A DNA stretch of 64,000 nucleotides from Candidatus Vecturithrix sp. (GCA_040772385.1 JAXGYF010000001.1:5048545-5112544), one strand, 5' to 3'. Shown: positions 37,270 through 57,254, numbered from the stretch's first letter. The notes: generated by a model from the sequence alone, not told the origin. Translations and numbers: made by a program.

Positions 37270-38253
37270 TCAGCCTCTCCCATCCAGCGGACTTTTTATT
37301 TGTTGTCCGATCTTGTTCAACACATGCGAATAGATCATTGTGGTTTCCACATCCTTATGGCCTAACAGTTCCTGGACTGTTCGGATATCATAGCCGTCTT
37401 CCAGGAGATGCGTGGCAAAGCTGTGGCGCAGGGTACGACAATCGGCCGGTTTTGTGACCCCGGCAATATTTGCTGCTTCCTTGACCGCGCGTTGGAGCGT
37501 TGACTCATCGAGATGATGTCGCCGGGTTATGCCTGAGCGGGGATCCGCAGAGAGCTTACTGGCCGGGAAGACATATTGCCAGTTCCAATTTTTGTTGTCC
37601 GATTGATATTGCTGGGCCAGAATTGGCGGCAGGTAGACCGTGCCGCAGCCTTGCTTCAGATCGTATTCATGCAAAGCTCTGTCATAGCTCAGTTGCAACT
37701 TGATCAGCGGTTCCAGGCTGTGAGGCAGCACGGTGACATGATCTTCGTGTCCCTCGATGGTTCGTACCTGAATCTGGCTCTGCTTGAAATTCAGGTCATT
37801 CACGCGAAGTCGGAGACATTCCAGTACCTGGAGCCCGGCGCCATAGAGGAGGCGAATTGGAAGCTGATAGGCCGGAACGACCGCATTCAGGATGCGGTAC
37901 ACCTCATCTTTGGAGAGGATGTTTGGGAGATGCTGAGGGCATTTAGCGTACAAACGGTTGAGGTGTTCGGCGGTCTCTTCCATCTGAAGCACCTCGCGAT
38001 ACAAAAAACTCAGGGCACTCAGGGCTTGATTTTGGGTTGAGGCAGCCACGCCATCGTTGGCGGCCAGGTGAGTTAGAAAGGTCTTCACTTCTGCCACGCC
38101 CATATTTTGCGGATGCCGCTTCTCATGAAACAGAATAAAGCGTCGAATCCACTGAATGTAGGTCTTTTCGGTCCGTTTGGCGTACTCCAGCGTTTGGAGG
38201 AGATCGCTGACCTGATCAAGCAATTTTTTTTGCTGAGGCGGGTGGAGTGCCAT
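37270..38253 (-). CDS. intI: Integron integrase (second IntI paralog, tandem with the first)
   Basis: Carries the same additional domain ([25 protein letters not shown]) and catalytic region ([37 protein letters not shown]...IKSPLDG). The ORF track extends to 38322; the Met at 38253 gives a typical IntI length. Confidence 0.8.
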
Positions 38254-38473
38254 GGTATTCTTTCCCCCTACATCAAGGTTCTTTAGTAGAATTTCACCAG
38301 GACATGCCTTTTTGCTTGACAAAAATTGAAAAAACCCGAAGATTTTTTTACACCTGCATAACTACAAGAACAGAGGAATACGTAAGAATTTTCAGTGGAG
38401 ATGTTTTTGTCAAGTATTTTCTTCCGGGAAACTCTCTTTTCGTGTATGAACGCGAGGGGGGGGCATCAGAGTG

Positions 38474-38924: not shown

Positions 38925-39100
38925 GAAATGTTTCGTATATACGAAACAAGTTTATTATATGCGAAACATGTTGCGTATATAATAAACCGGAGCACATGGC
39001 TGGCGGAAAAGTTTCGTATATACGTAACTTTTTTTGTGTCGTATATACGTAACAAATTTCGTATATACGTAACATGTTACGTATATACGAAACGGTTTCG
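38925..39100. repeat. Array of ~6 copies of a perfect 16-bp palindrome TTTCGTATATACGAAA (variants GTTACGTATATACGTAAC, TGTCGTATATACGTAAC) within ~180 bp
   Basis: Copies at about 38931, 38962 (degenerate), 39011, 39037, 39056 and 39077, with irregular 5-15-bp spacing, lying immediately left of the IS91-like element end. Confidence 0.8.
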
Positions 39101-39266
39101 GCCGCAAGTACGCAGCCTAATTCCTGTTGAACAAAGCCGCAGGGCGGCAGAAGAGTTTCGTGCTCCTCCCCACCATTTTTCTCTTGCCATGATCTGAACA
39201 GGTGTCATCCTCCTCCATGATGTATTCATCCTGCGTATGAACCTCATTCATCATGGAGGAGATACG

Positions 39267-40133
39267 ATGACCGCTCTGAGACACCGTTTCATTGAAGACC
39301 TGCAATTGCAGGGGAAGTCCGACCGGACGCAACAGGCCTACGTCCGCGCCGTGCGGATGCTGGCCGACCACTTCCACACCCCGCCGGATCAGCTCACCGA
39401 CGAGCAGATTCGGCAGTATTTCCTGTACGTCAAGAACACTCGACACTGGTCGTTTTCGACCATGAAACAGGCCCTGTGCGCTATCAAGACCTTGTATACG
39501 CAGACGCTGCACCGGGACTGGGGCATTCTGGACGTGATTCGTCCGCCGACATCGCAGACGCTGCCCGATGTCCTGACCCACGACGAGGTGCAGCGGCTGC
39601 TTCAGGCGGTGCGTCTGCCGCACTATCGGCTGTGCTTGACCACGATCTACTCGTGCGGATTACGCCTGACCGAAGGCGCCCAACTCCGGGTCACGGACAT
39701 TGACAGTGCCCGGATGCTCGTGCATGTGCGCCACGGGAAAGGGGACAAAGACCGCTATGTGCCGTTACCCCAACGTACCCTGGAGCTGCTGCGCCAGTAT
39801 TGGCTGACGCACCGCCATCCGGTGTGGCTGTTTCCGGCTGGCGGCGCTGGGCCGGTGCAGCGCCAGCCTGCTTCCGCCCCTCTCTCCGTCAGCACGCTGC
39901 AAAAAGCCTGTCGTCTCGCGAAGCAGGAGGCCGGGATCACCAAAACCGTCTCGGTCCACAGTCTGCGCCATGCCTATGCCACCCATCTGCTGGAAGCCGG
40001 CGTGAGCCTGCGCATGATTCAAGCCTATCTCGGACATACCTCTCCCCAGACCACGGCTCGTTACACGCATCTGACCTCCCAGGCGCAGACCAGCGCGGGC
40101 GTCGTCATTGACACCCTGATGCAGGATCTCTAA
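39267..40133 (+). CDS. Tyrosine recombinase (phage-integrase family) encoded upstream of the IS91-family transposase
   Basis: C-terminal catalytic region HSLRHAYATHLLEAGVSLRMIQAYLGHTSPQTTARYTHL. Such upstream recombinase genes occur in a subset of IS91-family members. Confidence 0.8.
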   Translation: MTALRHRFIEDLQLQGKSDRTQQAYVRAVRMLADHFHTPPDQLTDEQIRQYFLYVKNTRHWSFSTMKQALCAIKTLYTQTLHRDWGILDVIRPPTSQTLPDVLTHDEVQRLLQAVRLPHYRLCLTTIYSCGLRLTEGAQLRVTDIDSARMLVHVRHGKGDKDRYVPLPQRTLELLRQYWLTHRHPVWLFPAGGAGPVQRQPASAPLSVSTLQKACRLAKQEAGITKTVSVHSLRHAYATHLLEAGVSLRMIQAYLGHTSPQTTARYTHLTSQAQTSAGVVIDTLMQDL

Positions 40134-40154
40134 GCCCCTCATCGGAGGCCCGAG

Positions 40155-41291
40155 ATGCTGGAATTGGCTGACATCTTCCAGGCCTACGGTCCCGCGTATG
40201 AGGCGAAATACGGCGACCGCATGCCGCCCAGCCATCACGACGCGCTGTGGGACATCGCCCACTGCCGCACGCCCCTGATGGGGGGCGAGGTGTTCTGGTG
40301 TGCCCAGTGCCAGGACTTTGTCTACAGTTATCATTCCTGCGGCAACCGCCATTGTCCCAAATGCGGCGGTGACCGGGCCGACGCCTGGCGCGACGCCCAA
40401 CTCAAGAAGCTGCTCCCCGTGCCGTATTTTCTCGTGACGTTCACTCTGCCCCATTCCCTCAACGCCATCGCCCGTTCCCATCAACACGTGATCGATGACC
40501 TGCTCTTCAAAACGTCCGCGGATGCACTCCACACGCTCGCCTTGAATCCGGAGTGGCTCGGCGGCACGATTGGCATGGTGGGCGTCCTCCACACCTGGGA
40601 TCGGGCGATGGGCTATCACGTGCATGTCCATTATCTTGTGCCGGCCGGGGGGATCGATCCGGGCACCGGGGCCTGGATCCCCTCCCATCCGAAATTTCTC
40701 GTGCCCGCCTCGGCCCTGCGCGAGGTCTTCCGGGCCAAATTTCGCGACGCCCTGTACGCCGCCGATTCAGCCCTCTTCGCCCAGGTCCCGCCGGAGACCT
40801 GGAGCAAACAGTGGGTCGTGCACTGCAAGGCCGTCGGAGACGGACGCACGGCCCTGAAATACCTGGCCCCCTACGTCGCCCGCGTGGCCCTCTCGAATCG
40901 GCGACTGGTGACACTCGATGAGGGACAGGTCACGTTCCGCTATAAGCCCCACACGAGGCCCTGGACGACCATGACGCTCGACGTGATGAGCTTCATGCAG
41001 CGCTTCTTACAACACGTCCTGCCCAAAGGCTTCCAGAAAATCCGGTACACCGGCTTCCTGCACCCCAACGCCCGCACCATGTTCACGGCCCTACAAGCGC
41101 AGCTCGTCGCAGAGGCCGCCTCCGAGCGTCTGCCAGAGGTGCTGGCCGCCACGTTCGGCCTGGAGATCGGCAACGGGACGCCCAACGACGACCCGCCTGA
41201 CGACCCCCCGCGCGGTTGTCCGCACTGCGGTGGTCCGCTGGCCTTCGTCGGTCGCTTCCCTCGCGCCCCCCATCGACGAGGTCCTCCATGA
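40155..41291 (+). CDS. IS91-family transposase (N-terminal Zn-binding domain plus Y2 HUH transposase domain)
   Basis: CxxC...CxxC zinc-binding region (WCAQCQD...CGNRHCPKCG), an HUH-like HVHVHYLVP, and the catalytic Tyr region KYLAPYVARVALSNRRL. Confidence 0.8.
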   Translation: MLELADIFQAYGPAYEAKYGDRMPPSHHDALWDIAHCRTPLMGGEVFWCAQCQDFVYSYHSCGNRHCPKCGGDRADAWRDAQLKKLLPVPYFLVTFTLPHSLNAIARSHQHVIDDLLFKTSADALHTLALNPEWLGGTIGMVGVLHTWDRAMGYHVHVHYLVPAGGIDPGTGAWIPSHPKFLVPASALREVFRAKFRDALYAADSALFAQVPPETWSKQWVVHCKAVGDGRTALKYLAPYVARVALSNRRLVTLDEGQVTFRYKPHTRPWTTMTLDVMSFMQRFLQHVLPKGFQKIRYTGFLHPNARTMFTALQAQLVAEAASERLPEVLAATFGLEIGNGTPNDDPPDDPPRGCPHCGGPLAFVGRFPRAPHRRGPP

Positions 41292-41708
41292 CACGACGAA
41301 TACAACAGCGGACGATTGCCCCACCACGACGGGTTCGGAAAGTCTCCATTTTTCGGCGCACCGTCCCCGTCTGCCCATCGCCCAATGATCGCCTCATCTC
41401 TGTCCGATCACCAGGTGTTCACGGCCTCAACCTTCCATCATGGAGGTACTTGTCGCGAACAACGAAGAGGCATCTTCCCCCATCTGTGCCCCGCACACCG
41501 TCTCCACACTCACGTCATTTCGGAGCAAAATCCAAATAAGACCTTCTGAGAATTTTTTCCTTGACATGATGGGAAATCGCCCCCATATAACGAGGGGTGG
41601 GCTTGTTCAACAGAGATTATGTGCCGGATACTCGTCACATGAATCTTTAATCCGTTAGAACCTCCTTATAATAAGAGAAATTTACTCAATAAATCATAAG
41701 ATTATGTT

Positions 41709-44114
41709 ATGAATATACCACCAAGATTACAACATAGAATTGTTGATTTTCTTATATCTCTTCCGAGTATTCATGATAATAATAGTCAACGATCATTAAT
41801 CTACCAAGCCGGTCTAGATACAGAGTTACAAGGTCAGATTTCATTTGATAAACCAGCTATGCAGTTTGCCCTCTTCCTTGTGTCAACCTTAATAAAATAT
41901 GGTAAACTTAGTGATGGGCGATACGCTATTGAAGCTATTTTGGAGGCAGCAAAGAATTTTGTAGGACAAGATAGGAAAATATATTGTGAAACATTGATAA
42001 ATGAACTGCATGATTATACAATTGAAAAAGCTGATACACCATTATCAGATGATATCCCATTTTTAAAAAAGAGAAATTCTATAGTAGATGCTAAATACGA
42101 TCCCAAATTAGTCACAGAAATAAGGATAACTCCACCTGACTTGACTAATCAACAACAGTTACAAAATACTGGTGATAATTCTTTTGAGATAGATGCTTTT
42201 AAATCAAAGCTCTTAGATTATGAATTGAGTCAGTTAGGCTTACCTTCCTTGATTTTCCATCGGAACAATTTAGAAAGTGAGGGATTGCAGCTTATTCGTG
42301 AGGGTATTCTGCCTGTCATTTTGATTCAAGGTCTCCCTGGCTATGGAAAGACTGTATTGCTTGGTGAACTTGCCAAAAAGATTGGCCATGAATTTCAATA
42401 TACTTTGGTGTTAAATTTTTCTGGTCCAGCTTCTATAGAACCTTCTTATGTCATCGAAGAAATAAATACATTTCTCAATAAACTTGGCCGTGGTATTGAT
42501 ACAGAAATACTCAGAAAACAGAGTACTCAACGCTCTCTTCAAATTCTTATTCCTCAGATGATGGATCTACATCTTCTTCTACTTTTAGACGCAGTAGATG
42601 GTGTACCTCCTGGACAAATTGAAACATTTTTGCAATTCTTAACGGCAACCCCTAAAAATCGACTCATTATGACCGCTCGTTATAGAATCGTAAATAGGTC
42701 GAATGCTCATATATTACATGTGCCTCCATTATCGAACAAAGAAACTGCCGATTTTGTTGAACAGTATACTAAATCAATGAAGATCGGGGTTAATATAAAG
42801 GATTTATTGGAAAAACTCCCCAACAACATTAAAGAACATCCTCAAGCATTAAGCATGATTTTAGCAAATTTAGTTGATATTCCATTTGAACTTTTAGTAA
42901 TGCAAAGCTTCCATGACGATACATTAATCCTTCAACAGTTGGCTAAAAACATCCTTCTTGCTATAGATAAGGAAGTGTTGACTTGTTTAGTATTTATGAT
43001 AGTATTAGATGATCTTGACTTTATGGATACCCTTAAAATTTTAGAAATAAATCCTCCTAAAGGTCTGGTGAATTCTATTAATCTGTTATTGGAAAAGTCT
43101 TTGATTTATCGCCATGAAAATTCTTATCGTGTGCCTTCAATTATACATGAAGGGGTATTAAATTTAATTCCTGATATTGCAGAGACTATTCTAAATCAAA
43201 TAGGTTATATCTTAGAATTAAAAATCAACAGAATGCATTTACAAAGGGTATCAGATCATTTTGATAATCTTATTCCCATAGTTGTTACTATTATTCATCA
43301 TTTTTATCAAATGCGATCTTATGAATGGGTAACTAAACTTGTTATTGATGAATTCTTAGAATTTATCAATATGCGGGGTTTTTGGAAAGAATATTGGCTC
43401 ATTTTACGAATATCTTTTGATGCTGCAAAAAGAATAAACCAATTAAATATCTTTTCCAAAATAGGGTTTAGGATTGCTCGTAAATCTTTACAAATCCACG
43501 ATATTGATACTGGGAGTCAGGTATTAAGTGATGTGGAACGAGTTATTGGTGTTGATGGTAATACAATGGAGCATGCAGAATTTTGGAGTCATAAAGCTCT
43601 TTTCACCGAATTAACTGGATATACGGAGAATGCCAAAGAAGAACTACTGAAAAGTCTCCAAATTCGAGAATCGCTCTATGATGCTGAAGGTATTGCTGTT
43701 ATCCAAAAACTTTTAGGTAATATTCATTTGCGTTTAAAAGAATCAGATATAGCACGTCAATATTATGAGTCAGCATTGATATCTATCAATGAAAATACTT
43801 CCCAATTCAAACATATTATCGAAGTGGAAACGAGTCTCGCTTTGTGTGATCTGATAGATAATAAATTGGAATCGGCTGAATCCACACTTAGAAAAGTTAT
43901 TCAAAATTGTAAGAGTAAAGGCTATTTAGCTGGACTATCAAGAGCTTACTACAATTTGGCTTTAGTACTTGATCGTCAAAAACGTGTTGCTGAAGCTTTT
44001 TATTATGCTGAAATTGCTTCTAAGGAAGCTTTAAAAACAGATAAAGATATTATACTCGGTTCAGGAATACTTATGTGGCGATTAAAAAATTTAAAAGGAA
44101 CCTCTTGTAAATAA
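41709..44114 (+). CDS. STAND-class NTPase (NB-ARC-like P-loop) with an N-terminal alpha-helical adaptor/effector-associated-like domain and C-terminal TPR-like repeats
   Basis: Walker A LIQGLPGYGKTVLLGELAKK, Walker B HLLLLLDAVDG, a helical C-terminal half with TPR-like periodicity, and a 100-aa N-terminal helical domain. AT-rich at ~36% GC. Confidence 0.65.
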   Translation: MNIPPRLQHRIVDFLISLPSIHDNNSQRSLIYQAGLDTELQGQISFDKPAMQFALFLVSTLIKYGKLSDGRYAIEAILEAAKNFVGQDRKIYCETLINELHDYTIEKADTPLSDDIPFLKKRNSIVDAKYDPKLVTEIRITPPDLTNQQQLQNTGDNSFEIDAFKSKLLDYELSQLGLPSLIFHRNNLESEGLQLIREGILPVILIQGLPGYGKTVLLGELAKKIGHEFQYTLVLNFSGPASIEPSYVIEEINTFLNKLGRGIDTEILRKQSTQRSLQILIPQMMDLHLLLLLDAVDGVPPGQIETFLQFLTATPKNRLIMTARYRIVNRSNAHILHVPPLSNKETADFVEQYTKSMKIGVNIKDLLEKLPNNIKEHPQALSMILANLVDIPFELLVMQSFHDDTLILQQLAKNILLAIDKEVLTCLVFMIVLDDLDFMDTLKILEINPPKGLVNSINLLLEKSLIYRHENSYRVPSIIHEGVLNLIPDIAETILNQIGYILELKINRMHLQRVSDHFDNLIPIVVTIIHHFYQMRSYEWVTKLVIDEFLEFINMRGFWKEYWLILRISFDAAKRINQLNIFSKIGFRIARKSLQIHDIDTGSQVLSDVERVIGVDGNTMEHAEFWSHKALFTELTGYTENAKEELLKSLQIRESLYDAEGIAVIQKLLGNIHLRLKESDIARQYYESALISINENTSQFKHIIEVETSLALCDLIDNKLESAESTLRKVIQNCKSKGYLAGLSRAYYNLALVLDRQKRVAEAFYYAEIASKEALKTDKDIILGSGILMWRLKNLKGTSCK

Positions 44115-44123
44115 GGAGTATGT

Positions 44124-44342
44124 ATGTGGTTTCAAGAAAGTAGTGAGATTATCACTCGATTATTCAGTTTATCAATTTTGTACTATGAGGCTAGTGGTGA
44201 CGCTAATTGTAATTGGCGAGAATTGGACAAGCAACTCACAATAGAAAAAGAATTTCTTTTATCAAATGGTCATGATTTGATAGGAATAGATGCTATTTTT
44301 GAAGAAGTCAACATGATTATTGGGTTTATCCTAAGTAAATAA
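44124..44342 (+). CDS. Small hypothetical protein (72 aa) immediately downstream of the STAND NTPase
   Basis: An ORF tightly coupled to the STAND gene, starting 10 nt after its stop with a GGAG RBS. Confidence 0.35.
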   Translation: MWFQESSEIITRLFSLSILYYEASGDANCNWRELDKQLTIEKEFLLSNGHDLIGIDAIFEEVNMIIGFILSK

Positions 44343-44449
44343 ACTATAGCATTATTCATTCCCGTTGATCGTAACCCTGACAGGGTTCCAAACCCTGTCA
44401 GGGTTGTAAATGATCAATGTCGATGCATAATGCTATATTACGCTGAGAT

Positions 44450-46405
44450 ATGTGGAAAGAAGAGACGATAAATAAGCTTAAAATTCTTTTAGATGTTGCG
44501 AGAAGGGAGGTTCCTTATTATACAAGTATATTACCTCCAGTATCCATTCAATTACCGGATGATATTTTTGGTTACCTTAAAAATTTTCCTCTCCTTTCTC
44601 GTCAAATTTTGCAAACTCAAAAAGCACTATTATGTTCTTCACATGGAGATATATCTTCTTGGCGCAAAATACGAACCACAGGGACTACAGGTGAACCGGT
44701 AGAAGTTATTTTAAATAAAGAGACTTGGACACTTGAAAGTGAGTTGTTTGCCTCACATATAGATCGTTATTTACAACGCCTTGATTGGCATCAAAAAAAG
44801 ATATTTTATTTAAATCTACATCCTAGTGCAAGCTCCCGAACTCTTCCTTCTAAATGGCATGATGAAGCACAAATGATAAAATGGAATCTAATTCGAATTT
44901 GGCAATTATCTGATGAAAAATTTATGAATTCCATTGAATGCCTTAATGAAAGTATTATTACTACCATGGCTTCTGTCGTAGAACTCATTTGCTCTCGCAT
45001 ATTAAAATCAGGCATCATAAACAAAATTCATCCTTCCCTTATTGTTTTATCAGGAGAAACTATCCTTCCAGAGACAAGAATGCTTATAAACGAGGTGTTT
45101 AAATGTCCTGTTACCTCTCTCTATACAATGGCTGAGGTTGGAATTATTGGATCAGAACAAATAGATCCAAATGTTTATCAAGTAGAAGAATCTGCTGTAA
45201 TAGTAGAAATTGTTGACGAAAACGGTAATCGAGTTCCTCAAGGAATTGAAGGAGAGATTATTATTACCCCTTTAAACAATGTGGTAATGCCACTTATTCG
45301 GTATCGTACTGGAGATCGGGGTTATTGGGTTGACATTGATTCGTCTCCTCCAATTTTTAGATTAGTTGAGGCTCGCCGTTCCTATCACTTGATTACAGAA
45401 AATAATGCTTCGATGAACGTTGTTAGATTTACAAAGATGTTAGCTTCTCTCAATGTTGATCGTTATCGGATGGATCAGAAACAGGATGGGACTGTTATTT
45501 TCTCTTATTATTCTCAAAAGAGCGCATTTAGTGAAATGGACTATTCCCTTGTTAAATCAGTAATTCGTGGTGCCTTTGGTCCTGAAGTCAGGATAGAGTT
45601 TTATCAGGTTGAAGATCGTAACACTCTTAGTCAAGCTCCAGATCAGATTCAACCATCACGAGAATATATTACTTCTCCTAACGCGGAACCATTAGACCCG
45701 AGTTTAGTAAAATTAGCTTCTTGGCTTCGTCAACAATTATTTGATGAGATCCAGATAGATGCCGCTATTCTTACGGGCTCTGCCCTTGATCATAGGACAA
45801 CAACTCGTTTTAGCGATATTGACTTAGTAGTTTTAGTTCAGAATAATCCAATGGACTCTTATTGGATTAAGGTATCACGTAACCTTATATCTCATATTCC
45901 ACAGCTTTCCATAAATTTTGACTATATACGTGGTCTTTCATATCGCTCACCATTGCTTGCTTGTCGTTTATTATGTGAACAAATCCCAGTAATTGGTAAA
46001 GTAGATGAATATATTCTGCCATGGCCTAAACTGGAAAATTTACGACTTCAAGGATTATATTGGTCTCAAGATACTATCGGAACACTTTGGTTAAGGCTTG
46101 TAAATTTAAAAGTATTAAGTATGGATCCAATACGTGAGGCATGGATAGCTACAAAGCTTATTCTGGAGGCTCTTCGTTACCGTTATCTTGTTCGAAGTGA
46201 GCACGAGACATCATCTGTTTGCATATTAAATAAGCTAGAGAAAGATATTGAAATTCCGGATTTATGGAAAAGAGACTTATTTGACATGTTTAATGTTGCA
46301 AGAGAACATCTCCCTCCACCTCTCATTAATAGTAATATAGTTGAACATTATTTACAATTAGCTTTGTCATATATTCGTTTTATTCAGATTGACTTAATGC
46401 GATGA
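44450..46405 (+). CDS. Fusion protein: PaaK/F390-synthetase-like adenylate-forming enzyme (N-terminal ~430 aa) plus minimal Pol-beta-type nucleotidyltransferase domain (possibly followed by a HEPN-like helical region)
   Basis: ANL motifs IRTTGTTGEPVEV and IRYRTGDRGYW. A C-terminal GSALDHRTTTRFSDIDLVVLV minimal nucleotidyltransferase signature. The tail carries an RYLVRSEH R-x(4-6)-H-like motif. Confidence 0.6.
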   Translation: MWKEETINKLKILLDVARREVPYYTSILPPVSIQLPDDIFGYLKNFPLLSRQILQTQKALLCSSHGDISSWRKIRTTGTTGEPVEVILNKETWTLESELFASHIDRYLQRLDWHQKKIFYLNLHPSASSRTLPSKWHDEAQMIKWNLIRIWQLSDEKFMNSIECLNESIITTMASVVELICSRILKSGIINKIHPSLIVLSGETILPETRMLINEVFKCPVTSLYTMAEVGIIGSEQIDPNVYQVEESAVIVEIVDENGNRVPQGIEGEIIITPLNNVVMPLIRYRTGDRGYWVDIDSSPPIFRLVEARRSYHLITENNASMNVVRFTKMLASLNVDRYRMDQKQDGTVIFSYYSQKSAFSEMDYSLVKSVIRGAFGPEVRIEFYQVEDRNTLSQAPDQIQPSREYITSPNAEPLDPSLVKLASWLRQQLFDEIQIDAAILTGSALDHRTTTRFSDIDLVVLVQNNPMDSYWIKVSRNLISHIPQLSINFDYIRGLSYRSPLLACRLLCEQIPVIGKVDEYILPWPKLENLRLQGLYWSQDTIGTLWLRLVNLKVLSMDPIREAWIATKLILEALRYRYLVRSEHETSSVCILNKLEKDIEIPDLWKRDLFDMFNVAREHLPPPLINSNIVEHYLQLALSYIRFIQIDLMR

Positions 46406-46422
46406 GGTAAAGCAGAGAAAGG

Positions 46423-46534
46423 TTCTAACGATCTGCTTGCACCGGAGCGCAAAGGGCGGGCGGAAAAATGGGTTGCTGAATGTCGGGCTTGGGTGCCGCC
46501 CGCCCTTTCCGCCCGGTGAAGCAGGGCGTTCGGC
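46423..46534 (+). other. attC-like cassette recombination site (~110 bp): TTCTAAC ... GGGCGGGCGG ... CCGCCCGCCC ... GCAGGGCGTTCGGCG
   Basis: An imperfect inverted repeat with an RYYYAAC-like 5' end and a GTTCGGC 3' end. It sits immediately after the stop of the 44450-46405 gene. The same architecture recurs at 55512-55621, 59898-60008 and 61102-61215, and the 3' end alone matches at 63986-63992. Confidence 0.55.
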
Positions 46535-46564
46535 GTGTACGCTTTGTAGAAAAGGAACAAATCT

Positions 46565-47389
46565 ATGGATGCTAATAATGAAAAAATACAAGGCGAAGTT
46601 AAATGGTATGATCCTCATAAAGGATATGGGGTGCTTGTTGATGATAATCAAAATGAATATTTTATTCACCATACAAATCTAAGCTTTGAACAAAAACAAC
46701 TATTTGCCTTTGAGCGAGTCGCATTTCTCTTAAAACCACGACAACATGGTAAAGAAGGTCTTGAAGCATATGAGATAGATATACTCCCTCCATCCCCTGT
46801 CGAAGAAAACGATGAGCACTCGATTCGGGTTCAGGATATTCTACGCAAAATGCAAGGGTGGTTTAGAATGCGTGCTTCATTTCAACGAGAATATGCTGAA
46901 CAAAAAGCTAAATGGAATGTTTGGGATGATATGGCTGATGAATATATCGAATTTCAAGAACCATTGATACATATTCAGAATACATTTAATTTAGAAATGA
47001 TTCCTGCCCATCCTGACATAATCGCTAAAGCCTTTACTCCTGGGAATGATATGCCAGTTGGGGCGTTTACACGAGCAGTAGATATTGATGATTATGAAAG
47101 ACGTAGAGGAGTTTACGCCTGTATGGGAAATGATGAATTGATTCTTATTGTTCATGCGTTCTATAAAAGTCGTAAGACTCGCATAGATTGCTGGAGGGCT
47201 AAAATATTTCGTCGCAGAGATGGAAAGATTATCTCAATGCCTGATAAAGGAACATACACAGGACATTTCAAAAGAAATATCTGGAGAGAGCGGTTTGATT
47301 ATTTTTTACAGGATATTCAGCATATGATGGCAATAGCGACACGAAACAGAATGAGTACAAACGATATGGATATAAATGATCTTTTTTAA
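46565..47389 (+). CDS. Cold-shock-domain protein with a C-terminal extension of unknown function (274 aa)
   Basis: The N-terminal GEVKWYDPHKGYGVLVDDNQNEYFIHHTNL matches CspA-type RNP1/RNP2 motifs. The remaining ~200 aa are unassigned. Confidence 0.6.
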   Translation: MDANNEKIQGEVKWYDPHKGYGVLVDDNQNEYFIHHTNLSFEQKQLFAFERVAFLLKPRQHGKEGLEAYEIDILPPSPVEENDEHSIRVQDILRKMQGWFRMRASFQREYAEQKAKWNVWDDMADEYIEFQEPLIHIQNTFNLEMIPAHPDIIAKAFTPGNDMPVGAFTRAVDIDDYERRRGVYACMGNDELILIVHAFYKSRKTRIDCWRAKIFRRRDGKIISMPDKGTYTGHFKRNIWRERFDYFLQDIQHMMAIATRNRMSTNDMDINDLF

Positions 47390-47556
47390 GAATTTTGAAT
47401 TATGGATACTGCTCGCTTTATTATACGATGCAAAATATGTCCACCTGTGCAAAGCTAAATTTATAAAAATTTATAGACAAAGATCATCTGGGTATGAGAA
47501 TACGGTTGAGACGGGAAAATTGTCAAGAAGAATCCTAACGCCAGAGGAGGTCTCTC

Positions 47557-49088
47557 ATGAACGCCTATAAAATTCGTATCAATATTGAAATCACGCCAAC
47601 CACCGACACACCACATTCCTGCCCTACTCACCGTGACGATGGGGGGCTTGAGGTCGTCATTCCAGAAACGGAGGCGAGCAGCATCGATCTCTGTGAGCGA
47701 CGCCTTCTGGAGACCAGCCATCCGGCGATTCGTGACGCCCTGGCCCGCCATTTGAGTGCCTTGTCAAAAAAAAAGCCTTGGCCCACGGAACTGACACAAT
47801 GATTCGTGACAAGGCGTATCCATATTGGGTTGATGGGGAAGTTGGTCGCTTCGAATTTACGACCCATCAGGTGTGTGATGGCGAGCGGACGCTGTATGAC
47901 ACCGCCTCCGAGTTCTTTCCTCAACGAGGACGATGGGAATGGTACAAGACAAGCGGGTTCAAAGAAGTGGCCTATATCCATGGTGTGACGGAAGCCTCCT
48001 ACCGGAAAACCAGTCGGTGGCTCAATCGTGTGCGCGATCAGTCGGAGCGCGAGGGCACCCCGGCGCGCAGTCTTCAAGCCCAGGCGGAAGGGGAAGGCAT
48101 CAGACTGTGAGAGACGCTTGACCGCAAAGCGAGTCAAATTTTGGCGATCTCTCATGTCTCCGAGTCCAATGGCCGAATGAGTGTGCCGGACGTCCTGCCC
48201 CCGTCCTCGTCGCCAACGATCCCCCAGGTTCGAGTGGACGCGGCGATTGAGAGGTGTCAGCACCGCATGAAGACGCCTCAGAACCTCTGGAGCAATCCAG
48301 TGCCTTACGAAATGCCGGAACTGACCGTGAACCTGTCGGTGGATGATGTAGGCGTGAAACGGCAAAAGGCTGAACGGGGCTCGTCAGCGCCCCCTCCATC
48401 TCCCCCTGGTCAAGGGAACAAGACACGCACGTATGCTCACACGACCGTGGTGCATCTTGAGCGACAAGGACAGACCTATGTGCTGGCAGGCCATGGCATG
48501 ACCGCTGTCTTTCGCGTGGTGCTGGCATTTTTACTCTCAAATAATCTGAAGGCGTGCCATCTTCAATTTTTTACCGATGGGTATGGGGTGTTACATGAGG
48601 CCATTCGTCGCAGCTTTTCGTGGTGTTCGACGATGGTCATTGTGGTGGATTGGTATCATGTTCTCAGGAAGTGCCAGGTGCAACTCAGTCTGGCGTTCAC
48701 AGGGCGAGAGCGTCGCAATGCCGTCTTGAAGGAGGTATTGCCTCTCTTGTGGCATGGACTGGTTGATCACGCCATTCGCGTTCTCACCTCACTCGATATG
48801 AAGCAGGTCAAAGATCCCAACGCTCTCGCCAGATTAGTCGGCTATTTTGAGCGTAATCGTGCGCATATCCCCTGTTATGCCGTCAGGAAAGAACTTGGCT
48901 TACGAAATTCCAGTCAGATTGGCGAAAAAATGAATGACTTGCTGGTGTCAGAGCGTCAAAAGCATCACGGGATGAGTTGGTCGATTGCCGGCTCTGTTGG
49001 CCTGGCAGCTCTTGCTGCCCTGGGAAGGAACAAGGAATATGCCCAATGGTTTGACGAAGGGGATATTCCGTTTAAGCTTGTCGCATAG
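47557..49088 (+). pseudogene. IS transposase remnant split over three reading frames (47557-47802, 47778-48110, 48141-49088); family uncertain, possibly ISKra4/ISAzo13-like
   Basis: Three consecutive ORFs in different frames, GC-rich at ~58% within an AT-rich array. The family assignment is from recall and is weak. Confidence 0.4.
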
Positions 49089-49091
49089 GCA

Positions 49092-49281
49092 TACAGGAGC
49101 TTTGCACAGGTGGAAATTTATCTTTGTGAAGCAACTTACGGAGAAATTCTTGAAGAAGGAAAAGATGGATTAATTGCTCTTCGTGAGAATCAAAAATTAT
49201 TCATATTAGGCAAGCCTGGTTCGGGTAAAACCACTTTTCTCAAATATATCGTGATAGAGGCAATTGATAACTTACCATTCG
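49092..49281 (+). pseudogene. N-terminal fragment of a NACHT/STAND NTPase gene (Walker A FILGKPGSGKTTFLKYI), truncated on both sides by IS insertions
   Basis: Manual translation gives ...EILEEGKDGLIALRENQKLFILGKPGSGKTTFLKYIVIEAIDNLPFA, stopping at the IS1634-like element boundary. Confidence 0.55.
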
Positions 49282-51300
49282 CTTAATAAAATCTAATAAT
49301 GGTGAATTTCAAGATTTTGATACAAAACATCATCCAATCCTAATCTGTTCAAGATCTCTTTTTGGAGTTCTGATAGAGGCGTAAGATGACGGATTATGTG
49401 ATCCTTCAGATGAATAATTGTCAGGGTAATCCCCTCAAATGCCTTCAGCAACCGTTCGCTGGTCGGCCTGTTAGTGGTCTTTCGTATATTCTCAGGATGC
49501 AATCCTGGGAAAGCCTTCTTTTCCCGCTCTAATGAACGTCTTACAACAAACTCGATACGCGTTAACGTTCGAACTCCCAATGTCAATAAGTGGTTTAAGC
49601 CTTTGACTTGATCCGGTTCCGTCACATACATCGGAGCAATATTCAAACGGTTTTTGAGACGATCGAAGAGCCGTTCAATTCGACATTCTTGCCGGTATAA
49701 TCGTACCGCATCTTCCAAACATCACCTGTCACCGGACGTATCAGTCACGTAGGCTCTCCACCCGAACGGCTCCTTGACGTGCTCAATCTTCGCGGCATCC
49801 CGGGTAACAGCCGTGATGTGATAGCGAATGCTTTCGACCACCTCTTGTTGACGATTCGCCCCTCCTCGGCCTCGGCCCCTGTATTTCGTTGTACGCTCAA
49901 CTTCGCGTTCATACTCAACACGAAGCAGACCGTCAACCCGATGCTGCTTCTCAATCGCCTCAATGGCAGCCTTCAAACTCTGCTCATCGGTTATCTGTTT
50001 TTTCCCTCGGCCACGCGGCGGGGTAAGGGCATACAGTTTCTGCTCGGCCTGGTCCAAACGGGTATCGAACCCACGTTCCTGCTGCCCGGCATGATTGAAG
50101 GACTTGACGACCAACACCCGTTCAGTCCATTCAAGCGTCTGGCCGTTGACCACCCCGGAGCACCGACGTTCAACCTCATACCCTGCGGCCACGATGGCCT
50201 CTTCACCGTTGGCATCTGTGACCACCACAGGTTGAAGGGCTTTCTCCTTTTCCAGGGCAATACCGTCTCGAACCCACTCTGCCATCACTTCCGGCGTCTT
50301 CCCGGTTTGAGGCAGAGGGCAAAGATAATGACCGCCCAGCCCTTTAATATGCAAACGCGTCTCAATGGCACTGAGCTTGCAATCGCCAACATAGAGAACG
50401 CCCTGTCTCTCAAGGACGGCATGAATGCGATTAATCACCGGAACATATAAGCCGTCATCCGCACGCTCGCCTGACACGACATCGGTCGCTAGCGGCATAC
50501 CAAGCGGATCAAGTGCCCCTGTCATGAGCTTGATGTGAGGTAAACTCGGGTCGTCTTTACTATGACCGAATTGAAAAAGACCTCCCTCCCTCACCTCATG
50601 GTAGCCCGAAACCGTCGTCGCGTCACACCTAACGACATCCGTTTCTAAATCATAGGCACGGATGCTCTTCTGATTTAGCTCGGCCTCGATCGGTTCCCAA
50701 TACGACGGCTTGCTCAAGTTCTTCAGCAAAATACCCAGGCGGTCATCCGTAAAATCAAGCTCCCTGACAGTTTGGCCACTCACCGTGCTCAACGTCTGCT
50801 CCAGGTTCTTCACATACTGCCTGACGACGACTTTTCGATGATCGCCCTCAGAAAGAATATAGGCTAACCAGATCACCGCTGTCCAGCCCCAGCTTAATTC
50901 ACGCTGTTTCCAATGGACCGGAATATGGTTGTCGAGAACCTCAGGTAAGCCCATCTGAACCAGCACTCCAATGATTAACACAATATCATCGACCCGCTCT
51001 GAGCGAATCTCGAAGTCTTTTCTTGACTCAACGTGCTCTTTTGTTAACATACGCCTCTATACCTCCTGTGATTTTTTTCTATCATCGCCTCACAGAGGGG
51101 CATATTGCGCAAATTAAATTTTACCTGTCAAAATAAAGCGAATGATGAGTGATAATAATATTGATAAGAAGTTAACTCAAATTCCTATTTTTGTGCCTTT
51201 AAGAAGCTTTGCTGAGTCAGGCTTATCCCTATTTGAATTCATTGTTCGCCAGTTTAAAATTTGTAATTTCCCTGATGCTGGCCCTTTTATTGAAACGATC
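49282..51300 (-). mobile_element. IS1634/IS4-like insertion sequence inserted in the NACHT gene; its transposase reading frame carries an in-frame TGA
   Basis: ORFs 49722-51050 and 49293-49718 are in the same frame, separated by the TGA at 49722-49724. Together they give a ~585-aa DDE transposase-like protein (C-terminal ...GWRAYVTD and ...YRQECRIERLFDRLK). The element boundaries are approximate. Confidence 0.55.
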
Positions 51301-52274
51301 TTGAGAAAAAGAGGTAATTTTAAGCTAACACCTCAGGTTTTCGCTCGACTGAAAGAGAACAATTTACCTAAGAAATATCTGAGTAAATTAAAAAATTTGG
51401 AAAATAAAGAATTCTCTACTGAAGAAGAGCTTTTTACTAATGTCCAAACATTTGTAGATGATAATAAAATTTTTGAAGAATATAAGGCATTATTTTTGCG
51501 ATACGCAAAAAACGAAAAGTGGAAAACTATTATTTTATGTGATGGATTAGATGAAGTTCCTAAAAAAGAAGACAAACGACAGAAAATTATTCAAGAATTA
51601 ATTGATTTCAGTAATGAATTTGAGGAAAGTCAGTTTGTTATCACATGTCGTATTGCTGCCTCAGAATATCATTTTGAAGGTTTTACCTATGTTGAAATTG
51701 CAGATTTTGATGAAAAACAAATTGCCTCTTTTATTAGGAATTGGTTTATGAATAGTTCTTCATTGGCGAACAATTTTCTCGAAGAGTTTGGGAAAATTGG
51801 TAATGAACGACTTCGTGATCTTGCTAGAACCCCTCTGATTCTTACACTTTTATGTATTTCTTATGAGAACACTCTTGAACTACCAATTCGACGCTCAGAA
51901 ATTTATAAAGAGGCTCTTGATGCATTATTGGTGAGATGGAGTGCTACTCGGGGAATTAAACGAGATGAAATATATAACCATTTATCTCTTGGCAGAAAAC
52001 AACAAATGTTTGCCCGTATTGCTGCGGAGACTTTCCAAAAGAGTCAGTATCTCATTAAACAAGAAGTTCTGGAAGAAAAAATTATTAAGTATTTAAGAAA
52101 TTTACCGCAAGTAAGTATGGATGAAGAGATTAATGGAACAGCAATTCTTAAAGCTATTGAATCCCAACATGGGATTTTTGTTGAGAGAGCCCAGGGCATT
52201 TACTCATTTTCTCATCTAACCTTTCAAGAATATTATGCCGCAAAATATATTTATGAACACCTTGATAAAGATAT
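51142..52274 (+). pseudogene. C-terminal fragment of the NACHT NTPase gene (Walker B ILCDGLDEV, TCR sensor, TPLILTLLC), truncated at its 3' side by IS91-family copy 2
   Basis: The 51142-52341 ORF lacks a Walker A motif. Its last residues (...LNKAAGRQKSFASLPTIFLLP) are encoded by the IS91-like left end. Confidence 0.6.
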
Positions 52275-52415
52275 GTTGAACAAAGCCGCAGGGCGGCAGA
52301 AGAGTTTCGCGTCCCTCCCCACCATTTTTCTCTTGCCATGATCTGAGGCGGTGTCATCCTGCTCCATGATGTATTCATGAGATCTCTGAACCTCTTTCAT
52401 CATGGAGGCCCTCCT

Positions 52416-53282
52416 ATGACCGCTCTCAGACACCGATTCATCGAAGACCTGCAGTTGCAAGGCACGTCTGACCGGACGCAACAGGCGTACGTCCGCGCGG
52501 TGCGGATGCTCGCCGAACACTTTCACACCCCGCCGGATCAGCTCACGGACGAGCAGATTCGGCAGTATGTCCTGTACGTCAAAAACACCCGACACTGGTC
52601 GTGTTCGACCATGAAACAGGCCCTCTGCGCCATCAAAACCTTCTACACCCAGACCGTACACCGGGAGTGGGGTCTGCTGGACGTGATTCGCCCGCCAAAA
52701 TCGCAGACCCTGCCCGATGTCCTGACCCACGACGAGGCGCAACGACTGCTTCAGGCGGTGCGCCTGCCGCACTACCGGCTGTGCTTGACGACCATCTACT
52801 CGTGTGGCTTGCGCCTGACTGAAGGCGCCCAGCTCCGGGTGACAGACATCGACAGCGCCCGGATGCTCGTGCATGTCCGCCGCGGCAAAGGGGACAAAGA
52901 CCGGTATGTGCCCCTCCCACAGCGCACCCTGGAACTCCTGCGCCAGTATTGGCTCACGCACCGCCATCCAATCTGGCTCTTTCCGGCCGGTGGGGCCGGC
53001 CCGGTGCAGCGTCACCCCGCCTCGACGCCCATCTCCGTGAGCACGCTGCAAAAAGCCTGTCGCCTCGCGAAGCAGGAGGCGGGCATCACCACACGGGTGT
53101 CGGTCCACAGTCTGCGCCATGCCTACGCCACCCATCTGCTGGAAGCCGGGGTCAGCCTGCGGATGATTCAAGCGTATTTGGGACATACGTCGCCCCAAAT
53201 CACGGCCCGTTACACCCATCTCACCTCCCAGGCCCAGACCAGCGCGGGCGCCGTCATTGACGAGCTGATGCAGGATCTGTAA
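52416..53282 (+). CDS. Tyrosine recombinase of IS91-family copy 2
   Basis: Paralog of the 39267-40133 gene. Confidence 0.8.
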   Translation: MTALRHRFIEDLQLQGTSDRTQQAYVRAVRMLAEHFHTPPDQLTDEQIRQYVLYVKNTRHWSCSTMKQALCAIKTFYTQTVHREWGLLDVIRPPKSQTLPDVLTHDEAQRLLQAVRLPHYRLCLTTIYSCGLRLTEGAQLRVTDIDSARMLVHVRRGKGDKDRYVPLPQRTLELLRQYWLTHRHPIWLFPAGGAGPVQRHPASTPISVSTLQKACRLAKQEAGITTRVSVHSLRHAYATHLLEAGVSLRMIQAYLGHTSPQITARYTHLTSQAQTSAGAVIDELMQDL

Positions 53283-53309
53283 CCCTCCACACATCTTAGG
53301 AGGCAACGG

Positions 53310-54446
53310 ATGCTGGAATTGGCCGACATCTTTCAGGAATATGGCCCTGCGTATGAGGCGACGTACGGCGACCGCATGCTGCCCAGCCACCGGGATGCGC
53401 TGTGGGATATCGCCCACTGCCGCACGCCTCTGATGGGGGGCGAGGTGTTCTGGTGCGAGCACTGCCAGGATGTTGTGTACAGCTACCACTCCTGCGGCAA
53501 CCGCCATTGTCCGAAATGCGGCGGCGACCGGGCCGATGCCTGGCGCGACGCCCAACTCAAGAAGCTGCTGCCCGTCCCCTATTTTCTCGTGACCGTCACC
53601 TTGCCCCATGCCCTGAATCCGATGGCGCGATCGCACCAGCAGCTCGTCTATGATCTGCTGTTCAAAACATCGGCGGACGCGCTCCAGACCCTGGCCCTGA
53701 ATCCAGAGTGGCTCGGCGGCACGATTGGCCTGGTGGGCGTCTTACACACCTGGGATCGGGCGATGGGGTATCACGTGCATGTCCACTATCTTGTCCCAGC
53801 CGGCGGGATCGATCCGGACACCGGAGCATGGATGCCGTCGCATCCGAAATTCTTGGTCCCCGCTTCGGCCCTGCGGGAGGTCTTCCGGGCGAAATTCCGC
53901 GACGCTCTGCACGCCGCCGATCCGGCCCTCTTCGCGCAGGTCCCACCCGAGACCTGGAGCAAACAGTGGGTGGTGCACGGCAAGGCCGTCGGAGACGGAC
54001 GCACCGCCCTGACATATCTGGCCCCCTACATTGCCCGCGTCGCCCTGTCCAATCGGAGACTGGTCGCCCTGGAAGCCGGGCACGTCACGTTCCGCTATAC
54101 GCCGCGCACGAAGCCCTGGAGGACCATGACGCTCGACGTCATGCGCTTCATGCAGCGCTTCTTACAGCATGTGTTGCCCAAAGGCTTCCCAAAAATCCGG
54201 TATACCGGCTTCCTGCACCCCAACGCCCGGACCACGCTGGCGGCCCTCCAGGAGCAGCTCGCCACAGAGGCCGCTGACGAACGCCTGCCAGCGGCGTTGG
54301 CGGCCACCTTCGGTCTGCAGATTGGCGCCAGCGCGTCCGACGACGCCCCCCCTGACGAGACGCCACGCTGTTGTCCGCACTGCGGCGGGCCGCTGGCCTT
54401 CATCGGCCGCTTCCCGCGATCCCCTCATCGCCGAGGTCCCCCATGA
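53310..54446 (+). CDS. IS91-family transposase, copy 2
   Basis: Paralog of the 40155-41291 gene. Confidence 0.8.
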   Translation: MLELADIFQEYGPAYEATYGDRMLPSHRDALWDIAHCRTPLMGGEVFWCEHCQDVVYSYHSCGNRHCPKCGGDRADAWRDAQLKKLLPVPYFLVTVTLPHALNPMARSHQQLVYDLLFKTSADALQTLALNPEWLGGTIGLVGVLHTWDRAMGYHVHVHYLVPAGGIDPDTGAWMPSHPKFLVPASALREVFRAKFRDALHAADPALFAQVPPETWSKQWVVHGKAVGDGRTALTYLAPYIARVALSNRRLVALEAGHVTFRYTPRTKPWRTMTLDVMRFMQRFLQHVLPKGFPKIRYTGFLHPNARTTLAALQEQLATEAADERLPAALAATFGLQIGASASDDAPPDETPRCCPHCGGPLAFIGRFPRSPHRRGPP

Positions 54447-54829
54447 CACCACGAGCCCGACACCTCACCGTCATCTTCCCACAACCGGTTCGGAAAATCC
54501 TCTTTTTCCGGCGCATCGTCCTCGTCTGCCCATCGCCCGGAAATCGCCTCATGGCGGTGCGAATACACCATACTCACGGCCTCGATATTCCCTTCTGGCG
54601 GCACTCGCCGCGCGCATGCAAGGGGCACATTCCGCCATTCCCGAGGATTTTTCAGCCTCCACAGCCTGGTCATTTCGGAGCAAAATCCAAAGAACACATT
54701 CTCCATATTTTTTCCTTGACATGTCGGCAGATCGCCCCCATACAAAGAGGGGTGGGCTTGTTCAACAGAGATTATGTGCCGGATTCTCGTCACATGAATC
54801 TTTAATCCGTTAGCAGGGAAAAGGTGAGA

Positions 54830-55060
54830 AGGAAGACGAGCACGCACGACACATGCAACACAAACGTCGCGAAACAAAAAACTTGACACCCGAAGATCGA
54901 AGAGAGAACATGTAAGCAAGAGACAACGACACAAAGAAACACCCAATACACAAACAGGCAAGCAAGAAACACACAAGGAAGGAAGAAACAAACAAACAAG
55001 TAAGTAAGTAAGCAAGCAAGAAAGCAACCAACAAACAAACAAGCAACAAGCAACAAGAGA
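54830..55060. repeat. AC-rich low-complexity / microsatellite-like tract (CAAACAAG, AAGCAAGC, AAGTAAGT units)
   Basis: About 230 bp of strand-asymmetric A+C-rich simple sequence, immediately right of IS91-family copy 2 and upstream of hicB. Confidence 0.7.
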
Positions 55061-55069
55061 GGAGAACGA

Positions 55070-55511: not shown

Positions 55512-55621
55512 ATCTAACAATGGCTTGCAGGTGACGCGGGAAGGCGGGCGGAAAAATTGGTTGCTATCATTCAAGCTTAGTTGCGCCCGCCTTCCCGCGC
55601 CCCTGAAGCGGGGCGTTCGAT
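55512..55621 (+). other. attC-like site (ATCTAAC ... GACGCGGGAAGGCGGGCGG ... GCCCGCCTTCCCGCG ... GGGGCGTTCGAT)
   Basis: A perfect RYYYAAC 5' core and the cognate GTTCGAT at the 3' end. Nested inverted repeats. It begins 15 nt after the hicA stop. Confidence 0.6.
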
Positions 55622-57233: not shown

Positions 57234-57254
57234 CATAATAATATTCATATAATT

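Follow-up and report, generated by a model that had tools for sequence, protein, structure and literature searches.

Two diverged IS91-family elements with a tyrosine recombinase gene and a probable preference for integron core sites in an apparent chromosomal integron of Candidatus Vecturithrix sp.

Insertion sequences (IS) of the canonical IS91 family (IS91, IS801, IS1294) encode a transposase with a zinc finger and an HUH-Y2 domain, possess two dissimilar structured ends and generate no long target duplication. A stretch of 64,000 nucleotides (nt) from Candidatus Vecturithrix sp. (GCA_040772385.1, JAXGYF010000001.1:5048545-5112544), here called the window, contains two copies of an element with these properties that additionally encodes a tyrosine recombinase. 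Each copy is probably a complete, autonomous 2.53-kb member of an IS91 subgroup that combines both enzymes, targets integron core sites and resides here in a chromosomal integron. This degree of confidence covers the identity, the target and the context of the element; the enzyme that integrates it is weighed separately.

ISCR elements are integron-linked IS91 relatives. As in IS91, terIS lies upstream and oriIS downstream of their transposase gene (PMC13393415), and an attC site has been noted at the end of ISCR28 (PMC12772301). The element described here is similar in these respects. ISCR1, on the other hand, lies beyond the 3' conserved segment, captures neighbouring genes and has no recombinase gene, and the ISCR clade model of NCBIfam scores the element transposase with 21.6 bits against a cutoff of 925. 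Sites of the attC type are also invaded in a fixed orientation by IS1111-attC elements (PMC9229058) and by group IIC-attC introns (PMC3001079). The enzymes of these two groups (an IS110-family DEDD transposase and a reverse transcriptase/ribozyme, respectively) are unrelated to those of the element, and neither group has an IntI-like recombinase. We know of no description of attC-like ends in IS1111-attC elements or group IIC-attC introns.

With integron cassettes and their attC sites, the element shares bounds at GTT core sites, complementary RYYYAAC and GTTRRRY boxes with an unpaired spacer, an extrahelical base in the stem, a variable loop and the location in arrays. It differs in having two genes instead of one, in carrying the extra base on the other arm, in adjoining either foot of host attCs and in occurring outside integrons as well. 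A further parallel is the CTX phage, whose HUH replication protein makes single-stranded circles and whose folded hairpin is integrated at dif by the host XerCD. Single-stranded DNA made by rolling circle and a tyrosine recombinase that exchanges single strands at a folded site would be common to the phage and to the model proposed below. The phage relies on host XerCD and dif, whereas the element would use its own recombinase and an integron R box. Entries of ISfinder for IS91-family elements with two open reading frames (ORFs), one of them integrase-like (e.g. ISWz1, ISShvi3), presumably belong to the same subgroup. Matches to ISWz1 were reported as adjacent same-direction pairs of truncated copies (PMC11322121), which may reflect the two ORFs. 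No description of the recombinase-bearing subgroup, of its attC/attI targeting, of attC-like ends or of polarity-independent insertion was found in the searchable literature.

The two copies align in direct orientation over their whole length (Table 1), with 84.1% identity by BLAST and 83.8% by MAFFT. A sequence-only reading of the window had recognized two diverged direct IS91-family copies with a tyrosine recombinase gene, and indeed both are complete with both ORFs intact. The identity of ~88% given there is reached only in the terminal 112 nt on the left and 158 nt on the right and is too high overall; the ORFs are 85–87% identical and the 209 nt 3' of the transposase gene (41292-41500) merely 65%. 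The synonymous divergence (dS) between the copies is ~0.55 and the ratio of nonsynonymous to synonymous divergence (dN/dS) is 0.086 for the recombinase and 0.133 for the transposase. These values argue for two old lineages, each apparently under purifying selection, and against a duplication in place, in line with the earlier view that the pair is not recent. Two long-diverged lineages thus seem to have invaded one chromosomal integron separately.

The bounds of the element follow from independent copies with other flanks. The exact protein sequence of the copy-1 transposase is found on eight short contigs of the Logan collection, which is assembled from public sequencing runs, and a 100%-identical element with other flanks is present on three of these eight (L001-L003). 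Further junctions with the same block bounds are provided by 85–88% identical relatives on the long-read contigs L021-L023. The common block extends from GTTGAAC (39126) to ...AATCCGTTA (41657); the base 5' of it varies (T, T, C), as does the base 3' of it (G or T). Accordingly, the bounds proposed earlier hold within one base and the shared sequence does not run beyond them. The octamer tGTTGAAC noted at the left of both copies is real, but only GTTGAAC recurs in other copies. With 100%-identical copies in at least three other flanks, the lineage of copy 1 appears to have been active recently. The exact protein of the copy-2 transposase has no record in the contig index. A search of PLSDB yielded no close DNA relative of the element, and that of the genome collection only relatives at 35–51% identity.

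Upstream of the copies lie two intI genes and downstream canonical attC sites, from which both copies appear to be located inside a chromosomal integron, with attI assigned by position. The attC sites of the window combine RYYYAAC and GTTYGNN boxes with extra bases on the 5' arm, the geometry that is canonical for the top strand. A hicBA toxin–antitoxin pair and several STAND NTPases are among the cassette contents. The pyruvate formate-lyase of the 7.29-Mb source genome shares a 90%-identity cluster with the one of Candidatus Vecturithrix (phylum Candidatus Moduliflexota). Copy 1 apparently occupies a site of the attI type, with the intI genes on one side and the first cassette on the other. 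When copy 1 is removed, this site reads AGCCTAATTCCT-GTTAGAA (AGCCTAA-TTCCT-GTTAGAA), and we take the layout of 39114-39125 to resemble that of the attI1 simple site (GCCCTAAAACAAAG|TT; GCCCTAA-AACAAA-G|TT). In L023, from another metagenome, the element is found at the same attI-side position with different cassettes downstream, and in the related integron of L022 two copies in the same direction occupy attCs of a single array.

A peptide-pattern scan, in which context played no part in selection, yielded 16 genome loci and 70 metagenome loci. Most of the scanned transposases are 35–54% identical to the query, and three loci reach 69–88%. Four lineages (KSB3, deltaproteobacterial, acidobacterial and betaproteobacterial), with transposases 39–54% identical to the window copy, share one end architecture. 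The left end consists of GTTGRAC, NAA and a hairpin of 5–7 bp with a 3-nt loop. The right end consists of GTYCAAC, the reverse complement extended to 12–13 nt, a stem of 12–16 bp with one extrahelical base, CTTWATWC and GTT. The hairpins are 10 nt from the left tip and about 5–8 nt from the right tip. In copy 1 the complement of the left tip is the subterminal inverted repeat GGGCTTGTTCAAC. The left tip GTTGRAC fits the integron core GTTRRRY, and its complement GTYCAAC (RYYYAAC) lies ~45 nt inside the right end.

Changes in the left tip are matched by changes in the internal complement: GTTGAAC is combined with GTTCAAC, GTTGGAC with GTCCAAC and, in a Bradyrhizobium plasmid copy, ATTGAAC with GTTCAAT. 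Among the covarying columns, pair 9/67 is UA in five and CG in five sequences and pair 2/74 is GC in six and AU in four. The sequence-only reading had related GAAC to the target of IS91. This assignment fails, as GTTGAAC is element sequence in every copy whatever the flank, is replaced by GTTGGAC or ATTGAAC in other lineages and covaries with the internal complement; a target-like GTTA(G/T)RY adjoins the right end instead. When the joined ends are folded in silico as single-stranded DNA, one bulged-hairpin shape results in all four lineages (z = -4.4 to -7.8), in which an outer stem is followed by an asymmetric internal loop, the inner stem carries a bulge and a terminal loop closes the structure. 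The predicted fold corresponds to the layout of an attC, in which R boxes and L boxes are parted by an unpaired spacer, an extrahelical base lies in the L boxes and the loop is variable.

The canonical comparator is an IS1294-like single-ORF element from the E. coli plasmid pXH992_2, whose ends are defined from thousands of copies. Its left end is GAACCACG, followed by a hairpin, and its right end ...CCTATACGT is located beside CAAG. The right tip TATACGT recurs in the subgroup, e.g. in the deltaproteobacterial lineage (...CTTTATACGTT). The ends of the element appear to be homologous to those of the IS1294-like element, and the transposase probably processes them as in IS91. The joined ends of the IS1294-like element (z = -1.9) form no outer stem and no attC-like fold. 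Compared with this copy, the subgroup adds a tyrosine recombinase gene, which ends at most 200 nt before the transposase start in 56 of the 60 loci with enough upstream DNA, a 7-nt integron-core target, an inverted repeat of 12–13 nt between the left tip and the subterminal right end, and the attC-like fold. The lack of this fold in the IS1294-like ends suggests that core-site-like boxes, fold and 7-nt target go together with the recombinase.

The pair of tyrosine recombinase and IS91 transposase is also annotated on plasmids of Herpetosiphon aurantiacus and Clostridium estertheticum (with the recombinase named xerA/integron integrase) and on rhizobial plasmids, by which the subgroup reaches Chloroflexota, Bacillota and Alphaproteobacteria. 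One of five copies in a betaproteobacterial genome is interrupted by 1.4 kb of inserted DNA (L012, 5229-6637) at ~145 nt from the right end, before the inverted repeat and hairpin of that end.

The target is defined by 36 unique right flanks. All of these begin with GTT (G36 T36 T36), followed by A in 32, by G (25) or T (11), and by A/G and C/T in 28 each, which gives GTTA(G/T)RY; a full match to GTTRRRY is present in 15. A T precedes the left tip in 23 of 32 unique flanks, which reflects a target preference. The target consensus appears to be T^GTTA(G/T)RY in a fixed orientation, represented mostly by attC R boxes or attI. An attC-like hairpin (RYYYAAC box and complementary arms, 55–138 nt) ends exactly at the junction in 23 of the 36 left flanks, where only hairpins that reached at least the 95th percentile of scores at control GTT positions were counted. 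Instead of the tetranucleotide target of the IS91 family, the oriIS end of the element thus has the variant GTTA(G/T)RY. Neither GTTC/CTTG nor GAAC/CAAG was found 3' of the right end among the 36 unique flanks.

Insertion is precise. The empty site on L048 reads ...TATGCGCG-GTT-AGTCAAG... (GCGCG-GTT-AGTC uninterrupted), and the filled site on L044 reads ...GCGCG-GTT-GGACTAAATCC... and ...TTAACTC-GTT-AGTCAAG..., so that one GTT is present before and two are present after insertion. This target is not an attC; it is an R-box-like GTTAGTC within an IS110-like gene. The element is likewise inserted into non-attC DNA within a GGDEF gene.

Host IntI selects the bottom strand of attC. The polarity of host attCs was read from the arm with the extra bases, a rule confirmed in the window by gene orientation and intI position. 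In ~20 loci the host attC is bottom-strand relative to the element, and the element parts the R'' box from the remaining attC. The locus L013 has a genuine intI (480 bits) to the right on the plus strand and cassette ORFs on the minus strand, i.e. the array is opposite to the element. Here, the element splits an attC just after the R'' box, and the TTA within the right-flank GTTA serves as the stop of a cassette ORF of 100 amino acids (aa). Sense insertions at R' or attI are found in the window and in L022. In L071 a single 70-nt attC has an element left end against each of its feet. A single rule describes the insertions: the left end points toward the attC stem and the right end toward the R box, on either strand. 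Host IntI apparently fails to explain this pattern, and the enzymes of the element itself seem to explain it.

Both enzymes appear to be intact in sequence. The transposase scores 365.8 bits with the NCBIfam model transpos_IS91 (cutoff 125). Its residues H155, H157 and H159 and the tyrosine pair Y236-x3-Y240 are invariant in 12 sequences (both copies and ten relatives); the catalytic tyrosine pair expected from the earlier reading is therefore present in both copies. The tyrosine recombinase gene precedes the transposase gene by 21–27 nt in both copies. All catalytic residues of the recombinase (R, K, HxxR, H and Y) are present in the alignment of both copies. The closest solved structure is the integron integrase VchIntIA (IntI4; PDB 2A3V, E = 6.5e-34). 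The recombinases lack a block of ~29 aa between patches II and III that both IntIs of the window carry, and TIGR02249 matches them in two separate stretches with 186.2 and 177.3 bits, below the cutoff of 265. By score and missing insertion, the recombinase is apparently IntI/Xer-like and not a member of IntI. The IntI-specific insertion reads the extrahelical bases that set strand choice.

A mechanism can be proposed that builds on the rolling-circle model of IS91 transposition (PMC5714925). The transposase would nick the right end (oriIS side), displace the minus strand as far as the left end (terIS side) and release a single-stranded minus-strand circle. The joined ends of this circle would fold into the attC-like hairpin. 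The IntI-like recombinase would then exchange one strand at GTT with an R box, comparable to attC x attI recombination or CTX-phage integration, and replication would complete the insertion. That the recombinase performs the integration is a tentative assignment, to which we give slightly less than an even chance. It is favored because the integron-core target coincides with the recombinase and the attC-like fold, because the recombinase has diverged less than the transposase and retains its catalytic residues, and because a recombinase without the reader of extrahelical bases is expected to ignore attC polarity, as is seen.

Alternatively, the HUH-Y2 transposase might do everything, in the manner proposed for IS91, from the right-end nick and termination at the left tip to strand transfer into a single-stranded target beside a left-tip-like motif. 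Sites of the attC type would then be hot spots merely through their RYYYAAC/GTTRRRY boxes and their frequent single-strandedness, and the recombinase would have another job, e.g. excision between flanking R-box-like heptamers or multimer resolution. This is possible but doubtful. The invariant HUH motif and catalytic tyrosines are in its favor, as are the left GAAC with hairpin and the right-tip TATACGT, which are common to the canonical IS1294-like element abutting CAAG, the insertions into the IS110-like and GGDEF genes, and the irrelevance of host attC polarity. In L021 (6434-6572), furthermore, the last 69 nt of the right end, comprising inverted repeat, hairpin and tip, are tandemly duplicated. 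The inner junction ...TTCCGTT|CAAGGAGG corresponds to CTTG on the minus strand, one of the two classical IS91 target tetranucleotides (GTTC/CTTG), and the duplication could be an abortive rolling-circle event. On the other hand, the shift from a 4-nt motif to the 7-nt integron core occurs exactly in the subgroup with the IntI-like recombinase, and the attC-like joined-end fold is absent from the canonical element tested. In addition, the recombinase is more conserved than the transposase (91.9% versus 85.4%) with its catalytic residues kept, and must act on some DNA site of the element.

Several observations weigh against the preferred reading of a subgroup that is built on integron core sites and integrated by its recombinase. 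GTT is common to element and target, and the products of an IntI crossover (G|TT) do not differ from those of an HUH junction on either side of GTT. The likeness to the ends of IS1294 and the habit of IS91 elements to use a left-tip-like target would also fit the transposase-only pathway. The hairpin of the element is not a canonical attC, with the extra base on the sense-strand 3' arm and that of the host attCs of the window on the opposite arm. Covariation is no proof of base pairing, as terminal inverted repeats covary in any IS with one protein binding both ends. Thirteen of the 36 left flanks, including that of copy 2, are no attCs. The label attI for the putative site at 39114-39125 rests on position and on the resemblance given above. 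Finally, the loci are mostly on short metagenome contigs, assembly from short overlaps can be chimeric across a 2.5-kb repeat, and chimeras could be included. Examples are L002, which combines the left flank of copy 1 with a right flank in a GGDEF gene, and L066/L069, which are 100% identical over 4.9 kb and diverge at the right tip; as possible chimeras, they were used neither as evidence of rearrangement (L002) nor of co-mobilized upstream DNA (L066/L069).

It is quite unlikely that the copies are passive integron cassettes that happen to encode a recombinase and a transposase and are moved by host IntI via their own attC. In favor of this reading, their bounds fall on G|TT core sites, R''/R' boxes that are complementary to each other and a bulged stem are present at the right end, and copy 1 and both L022 copies lie in sense at canonical crossover points of intI-bearing arrays. 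The single polarity at the R' crossover required for host IntI is therefore found for copy 1 and L022, but not in ~20 loci and L071. In the former, including L013 with its array orientation fixed by intI, the element is antisense and the host attC is split at the R'' box, which is not cut by bottom-strand IntI recombination; in the latter, one attC is occupied at both feet. Moreover, the extra base of the element and that of host attCs are on opposite arms, copies occur in non-integron sites and on rhizobial plasmids, and conservation stops at the element tips and not at the canonical cassette bounds of the antisense arrays.

Very unlikely is the proposal of the sequence-only reading that the copies could act as a composite or one-ended rolling-circle transposon on the STAND/PaaK-MNT/CSD module between them: IS91/ISCR elements are reported to take adjacent DNA along upon termination failure (PMC5714925), and the flanks of copy 2 are not contiguous, indicating some rearrangement at its left end, but the interval is integron array sequence in which an attC, gene fragments and remnants of two other IS are found, the DNA on the two outer sides (attI versus low-complexity DNA and hicBA) is unrelated and forms no interrupted target, the interval proteins are single-member clusters on one contig each, the syntenic L023 carries different cassettes after the element, L022 has several direct copies each at an attC, and the two copies are 16% diverged and belong to separate lineages.

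The 10.6-kb interval thus appears to be an ordinary, partly decayed cassette array without composite-transposon cargo. Cluster and contig comparisons gave no sign of this block as a moved unit, and it was not seen elsewhere in them. PADLOC made no confident defence-system assignment for the bracketed genes. The copies are in direct orientation because insertion into the array is site-specific and oriented. The integron link suggested earlier is real, although it apparently consists of insertion into integron recombination sites and not of gene capture of the ISCR type.

As proposed, copy 2 interrupts a NACHT gene, which is cut by its left tip at codon 377. The homologue P0142 (60% identical) runs 247 residues further, and the missing ~247 C-terminal residues are nowhere in the window. 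The right end of copy 2 is at a GTTAG site; its left end is against the interior of the NACHT gene, and the 3' part of this gene and its attC are gone. No attC is present anywhere in 46535-55511. In L022, the order is a NACHT-type C-terminus, an attC and an element copy. We infer for copy 2 an insertion at the R box of a cassette boundary and a subsequent deletion from its left end into the NACHT cassette.

Table 1. Coordinates of the element copies, the surrounding integron and the genes between the copies, in positions of the window.
Feature	Coordinates	Strand	Remarks
Repeat alignment	39125-41658 and 52274-54813	direct orientation	single BLAST alignment, 2549 columns, 24 gap columns
Element copy 1, complete	39126..41656	+	left-tip GTT to right-junction GTT, one GTT target-derived; bounds from independent copies that have other flanks
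Left end of copy 1 (terIS side by orientation)	39126..39148	+	GTTGAAC 39126-39132, AAA, hairpin GCCGC-AGG-GCGGC 39136-39148
Tyrosine recombinase, copy 1	39237..40133	+	298 aa; Phage_int_SAM_4 and Phage_integrase
IS91-family HUH-Y2 transposase, copy 1	40155..41291	+	378 aa, N-terminal zinc finger; Zn_Tnp_IS91 and Y2_Tnp
Right end of copy 1 (oriIS side)	41599..41656	+	subterminal inverted repeat 41599-41611, complement of left tip
Right end of copy 1, continued	41612-41656	+	bulged hairpin 41612-41648, AATCC 41649-41653, GTT 41654-41656
Element copy 2, complete, diverged lineage	52275..54811	+	left tip 52275-52281, internal complement 54760-54766, right-junction GTT 54809-54811
Tyrosine recombinase, copy 2	52377..53282	+	91.9% aa identity to copy 1; dN/dS 0.086
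IS91-family transposase, copy 2	53310..54446	+	85.4% aa identity to copy 1; dN/dS 0.133
Integron integrase IntI_A	36022..37008	-	canonical catalytic residues; TIGR02249 439.8 bits (cutoff 265)
Integron-integrase paralog IntI_B	37270..38322	-	adjoins array; catalytic Arg, Lys and His substituted; TIGR02249 405.6 bits
attI-like simple-site half, AGCCTAA-TTCCT	39114..39125	+	directly left of copy 1
Canonical attC sites (five)	46423-46534, 55512-55621, 58854-58995, 59898-60008, 63854-63994	+	110-142 nt
First cassette after copy 1	41657..46534	+	4.9 kb, two genes; ends in canonical attC 46423-46534
EAD8-NACHT-TPR gene	41709-44114	+	first cassette
Acyl-CoA-ligase-like/nucleotidyltransferase fusion gene	44450-46405	+	first cassette
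Decayed array stretch without attC	46535..52274	+	
Cold-shock-domain (CSD) gene	46565-47389	+	decayed stretch
ISKra4/ISLre2-like transposase remnant	48141-49088		GC-rich block 47.4-49.1 kb
NACHT gene pieces	49113-49265 and 51142-52273	+	P-loop part and rest
IS1634-family element	49293-51050	-	transposase split into ORFs of 442 and 141 aa; parts the NACHT pieces
hicBA cassette genes	55070-55497		attC at 55512..55621 (+)

The two integrases of the window differ in their catalytic residues. IntI_A and the IntI of L013 are canonical. IntI_B has GLQ for GLR, IEGHEDH for GKGxKDR and RTLRH for HxxRH, substitutions that are also present in its orthologue in L022 (1684-2556), and might represent a conserved IntI paralog with an altered catalytic site. 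Six direct and inverted copies of an 18-nt palindrome, GTTTCGTATATACGAAAC, are located at 38928-39105, between intI_B and the attI-like site. This palindrome array is conserved in L023, and the motif also closes the left flank of L003 (...GATATACGAAAC|GTTGAAC). The palindromes could be operators or accessory attI binding sites.

A rightward TTGACA...CATATAAC motif is located inside the right end of copy 1 (41561-41591), with CATACAAA as the counterpart in copy 2 (54716-54747). Motifs of the TTGACA type near the right end are also present in L021-L023 and might drive transcription of downstream cassettes. The outward TTGACA...TATAAC promoter spotted by eye at 41561-41591 was not called by the promoter scan. 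The ~250 nt between copy 2 and hicB (54814-55060) are A/C-rich low-complexity DNA with a 4-nt periodicity (AAAC/AAGC/AAGT). Comparable T/C-rich and (ATGTT)n tracts are found on both sides of the element in L021, at about 3880-3964 and 6573-6660.

Further downstream in the array, the cassette ORFs 56074-56988 and 57216-58835 encode nSTAND2-type NTPases. The cassette ORF 60045-61094 matches the PADLOC candidate defence family PDC-S11 (E = 5.5e-41) and the NucS_C nuclease domain. A further attC repeat of the array at 61100-61215 has the R'' box GCCGAAC and the conserved GGCGGGCGG arm, without a recognizable R' box after it. A group II intron at this attC-like repeat near 61.2 kb, suspected from a GTGTG start, found no support: Rfam gave no hit in the whole window, and the ORF 62039-63457 has no Pfam, NCBIfam or PADLOC match. 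In the housekeeping part of the window, two direct 297-nt copies (30458-30754 and 31416-31712) are 76% identical and 958 nt apart.

Integrons are the main bacterial platforms of gene capture, and the origin of cassettes and attC sites as well as the other users of these sites are open questions. A large IS91 subgroup in several phyla seems to be built around integron core sites, with an R-box target, ends that imitate attC and a second enzyme that, among solved structures, is nearest to an integron integrase. The element would be a concrete and testable case for the cooperation of an HUH endonuclease and a tyrosine recombinase on single-stranded DNA. In annotations, such units will be labelled both as IS91 and as cassette, and assemblies of cassette arrays break at them. 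They part arrays from attI and any promoter upstream of it, as does copy 1, and seed array deletions, as does copy 2. For the window, the repeat pair would represent two independent integron insertions and not a transposon of a defence module.

More speculatively, and rather unlikely at present, the unit may be a self-mobilizing "autonomous cassette", a two-enzyme integron parasite of many phyla that would combine rolling-circle single-stranded DNA and an attC mimic with integration by an IntI-related recombinase at R boxes of any attC or attI, irrespective of the strand. If this is true, the lineage of its tyrosine recombinase could bear on the origin of integron integrases and attC sites, and read-through at the left end could give neighbouring genes an attC-like end, a possible route to new cassettes.

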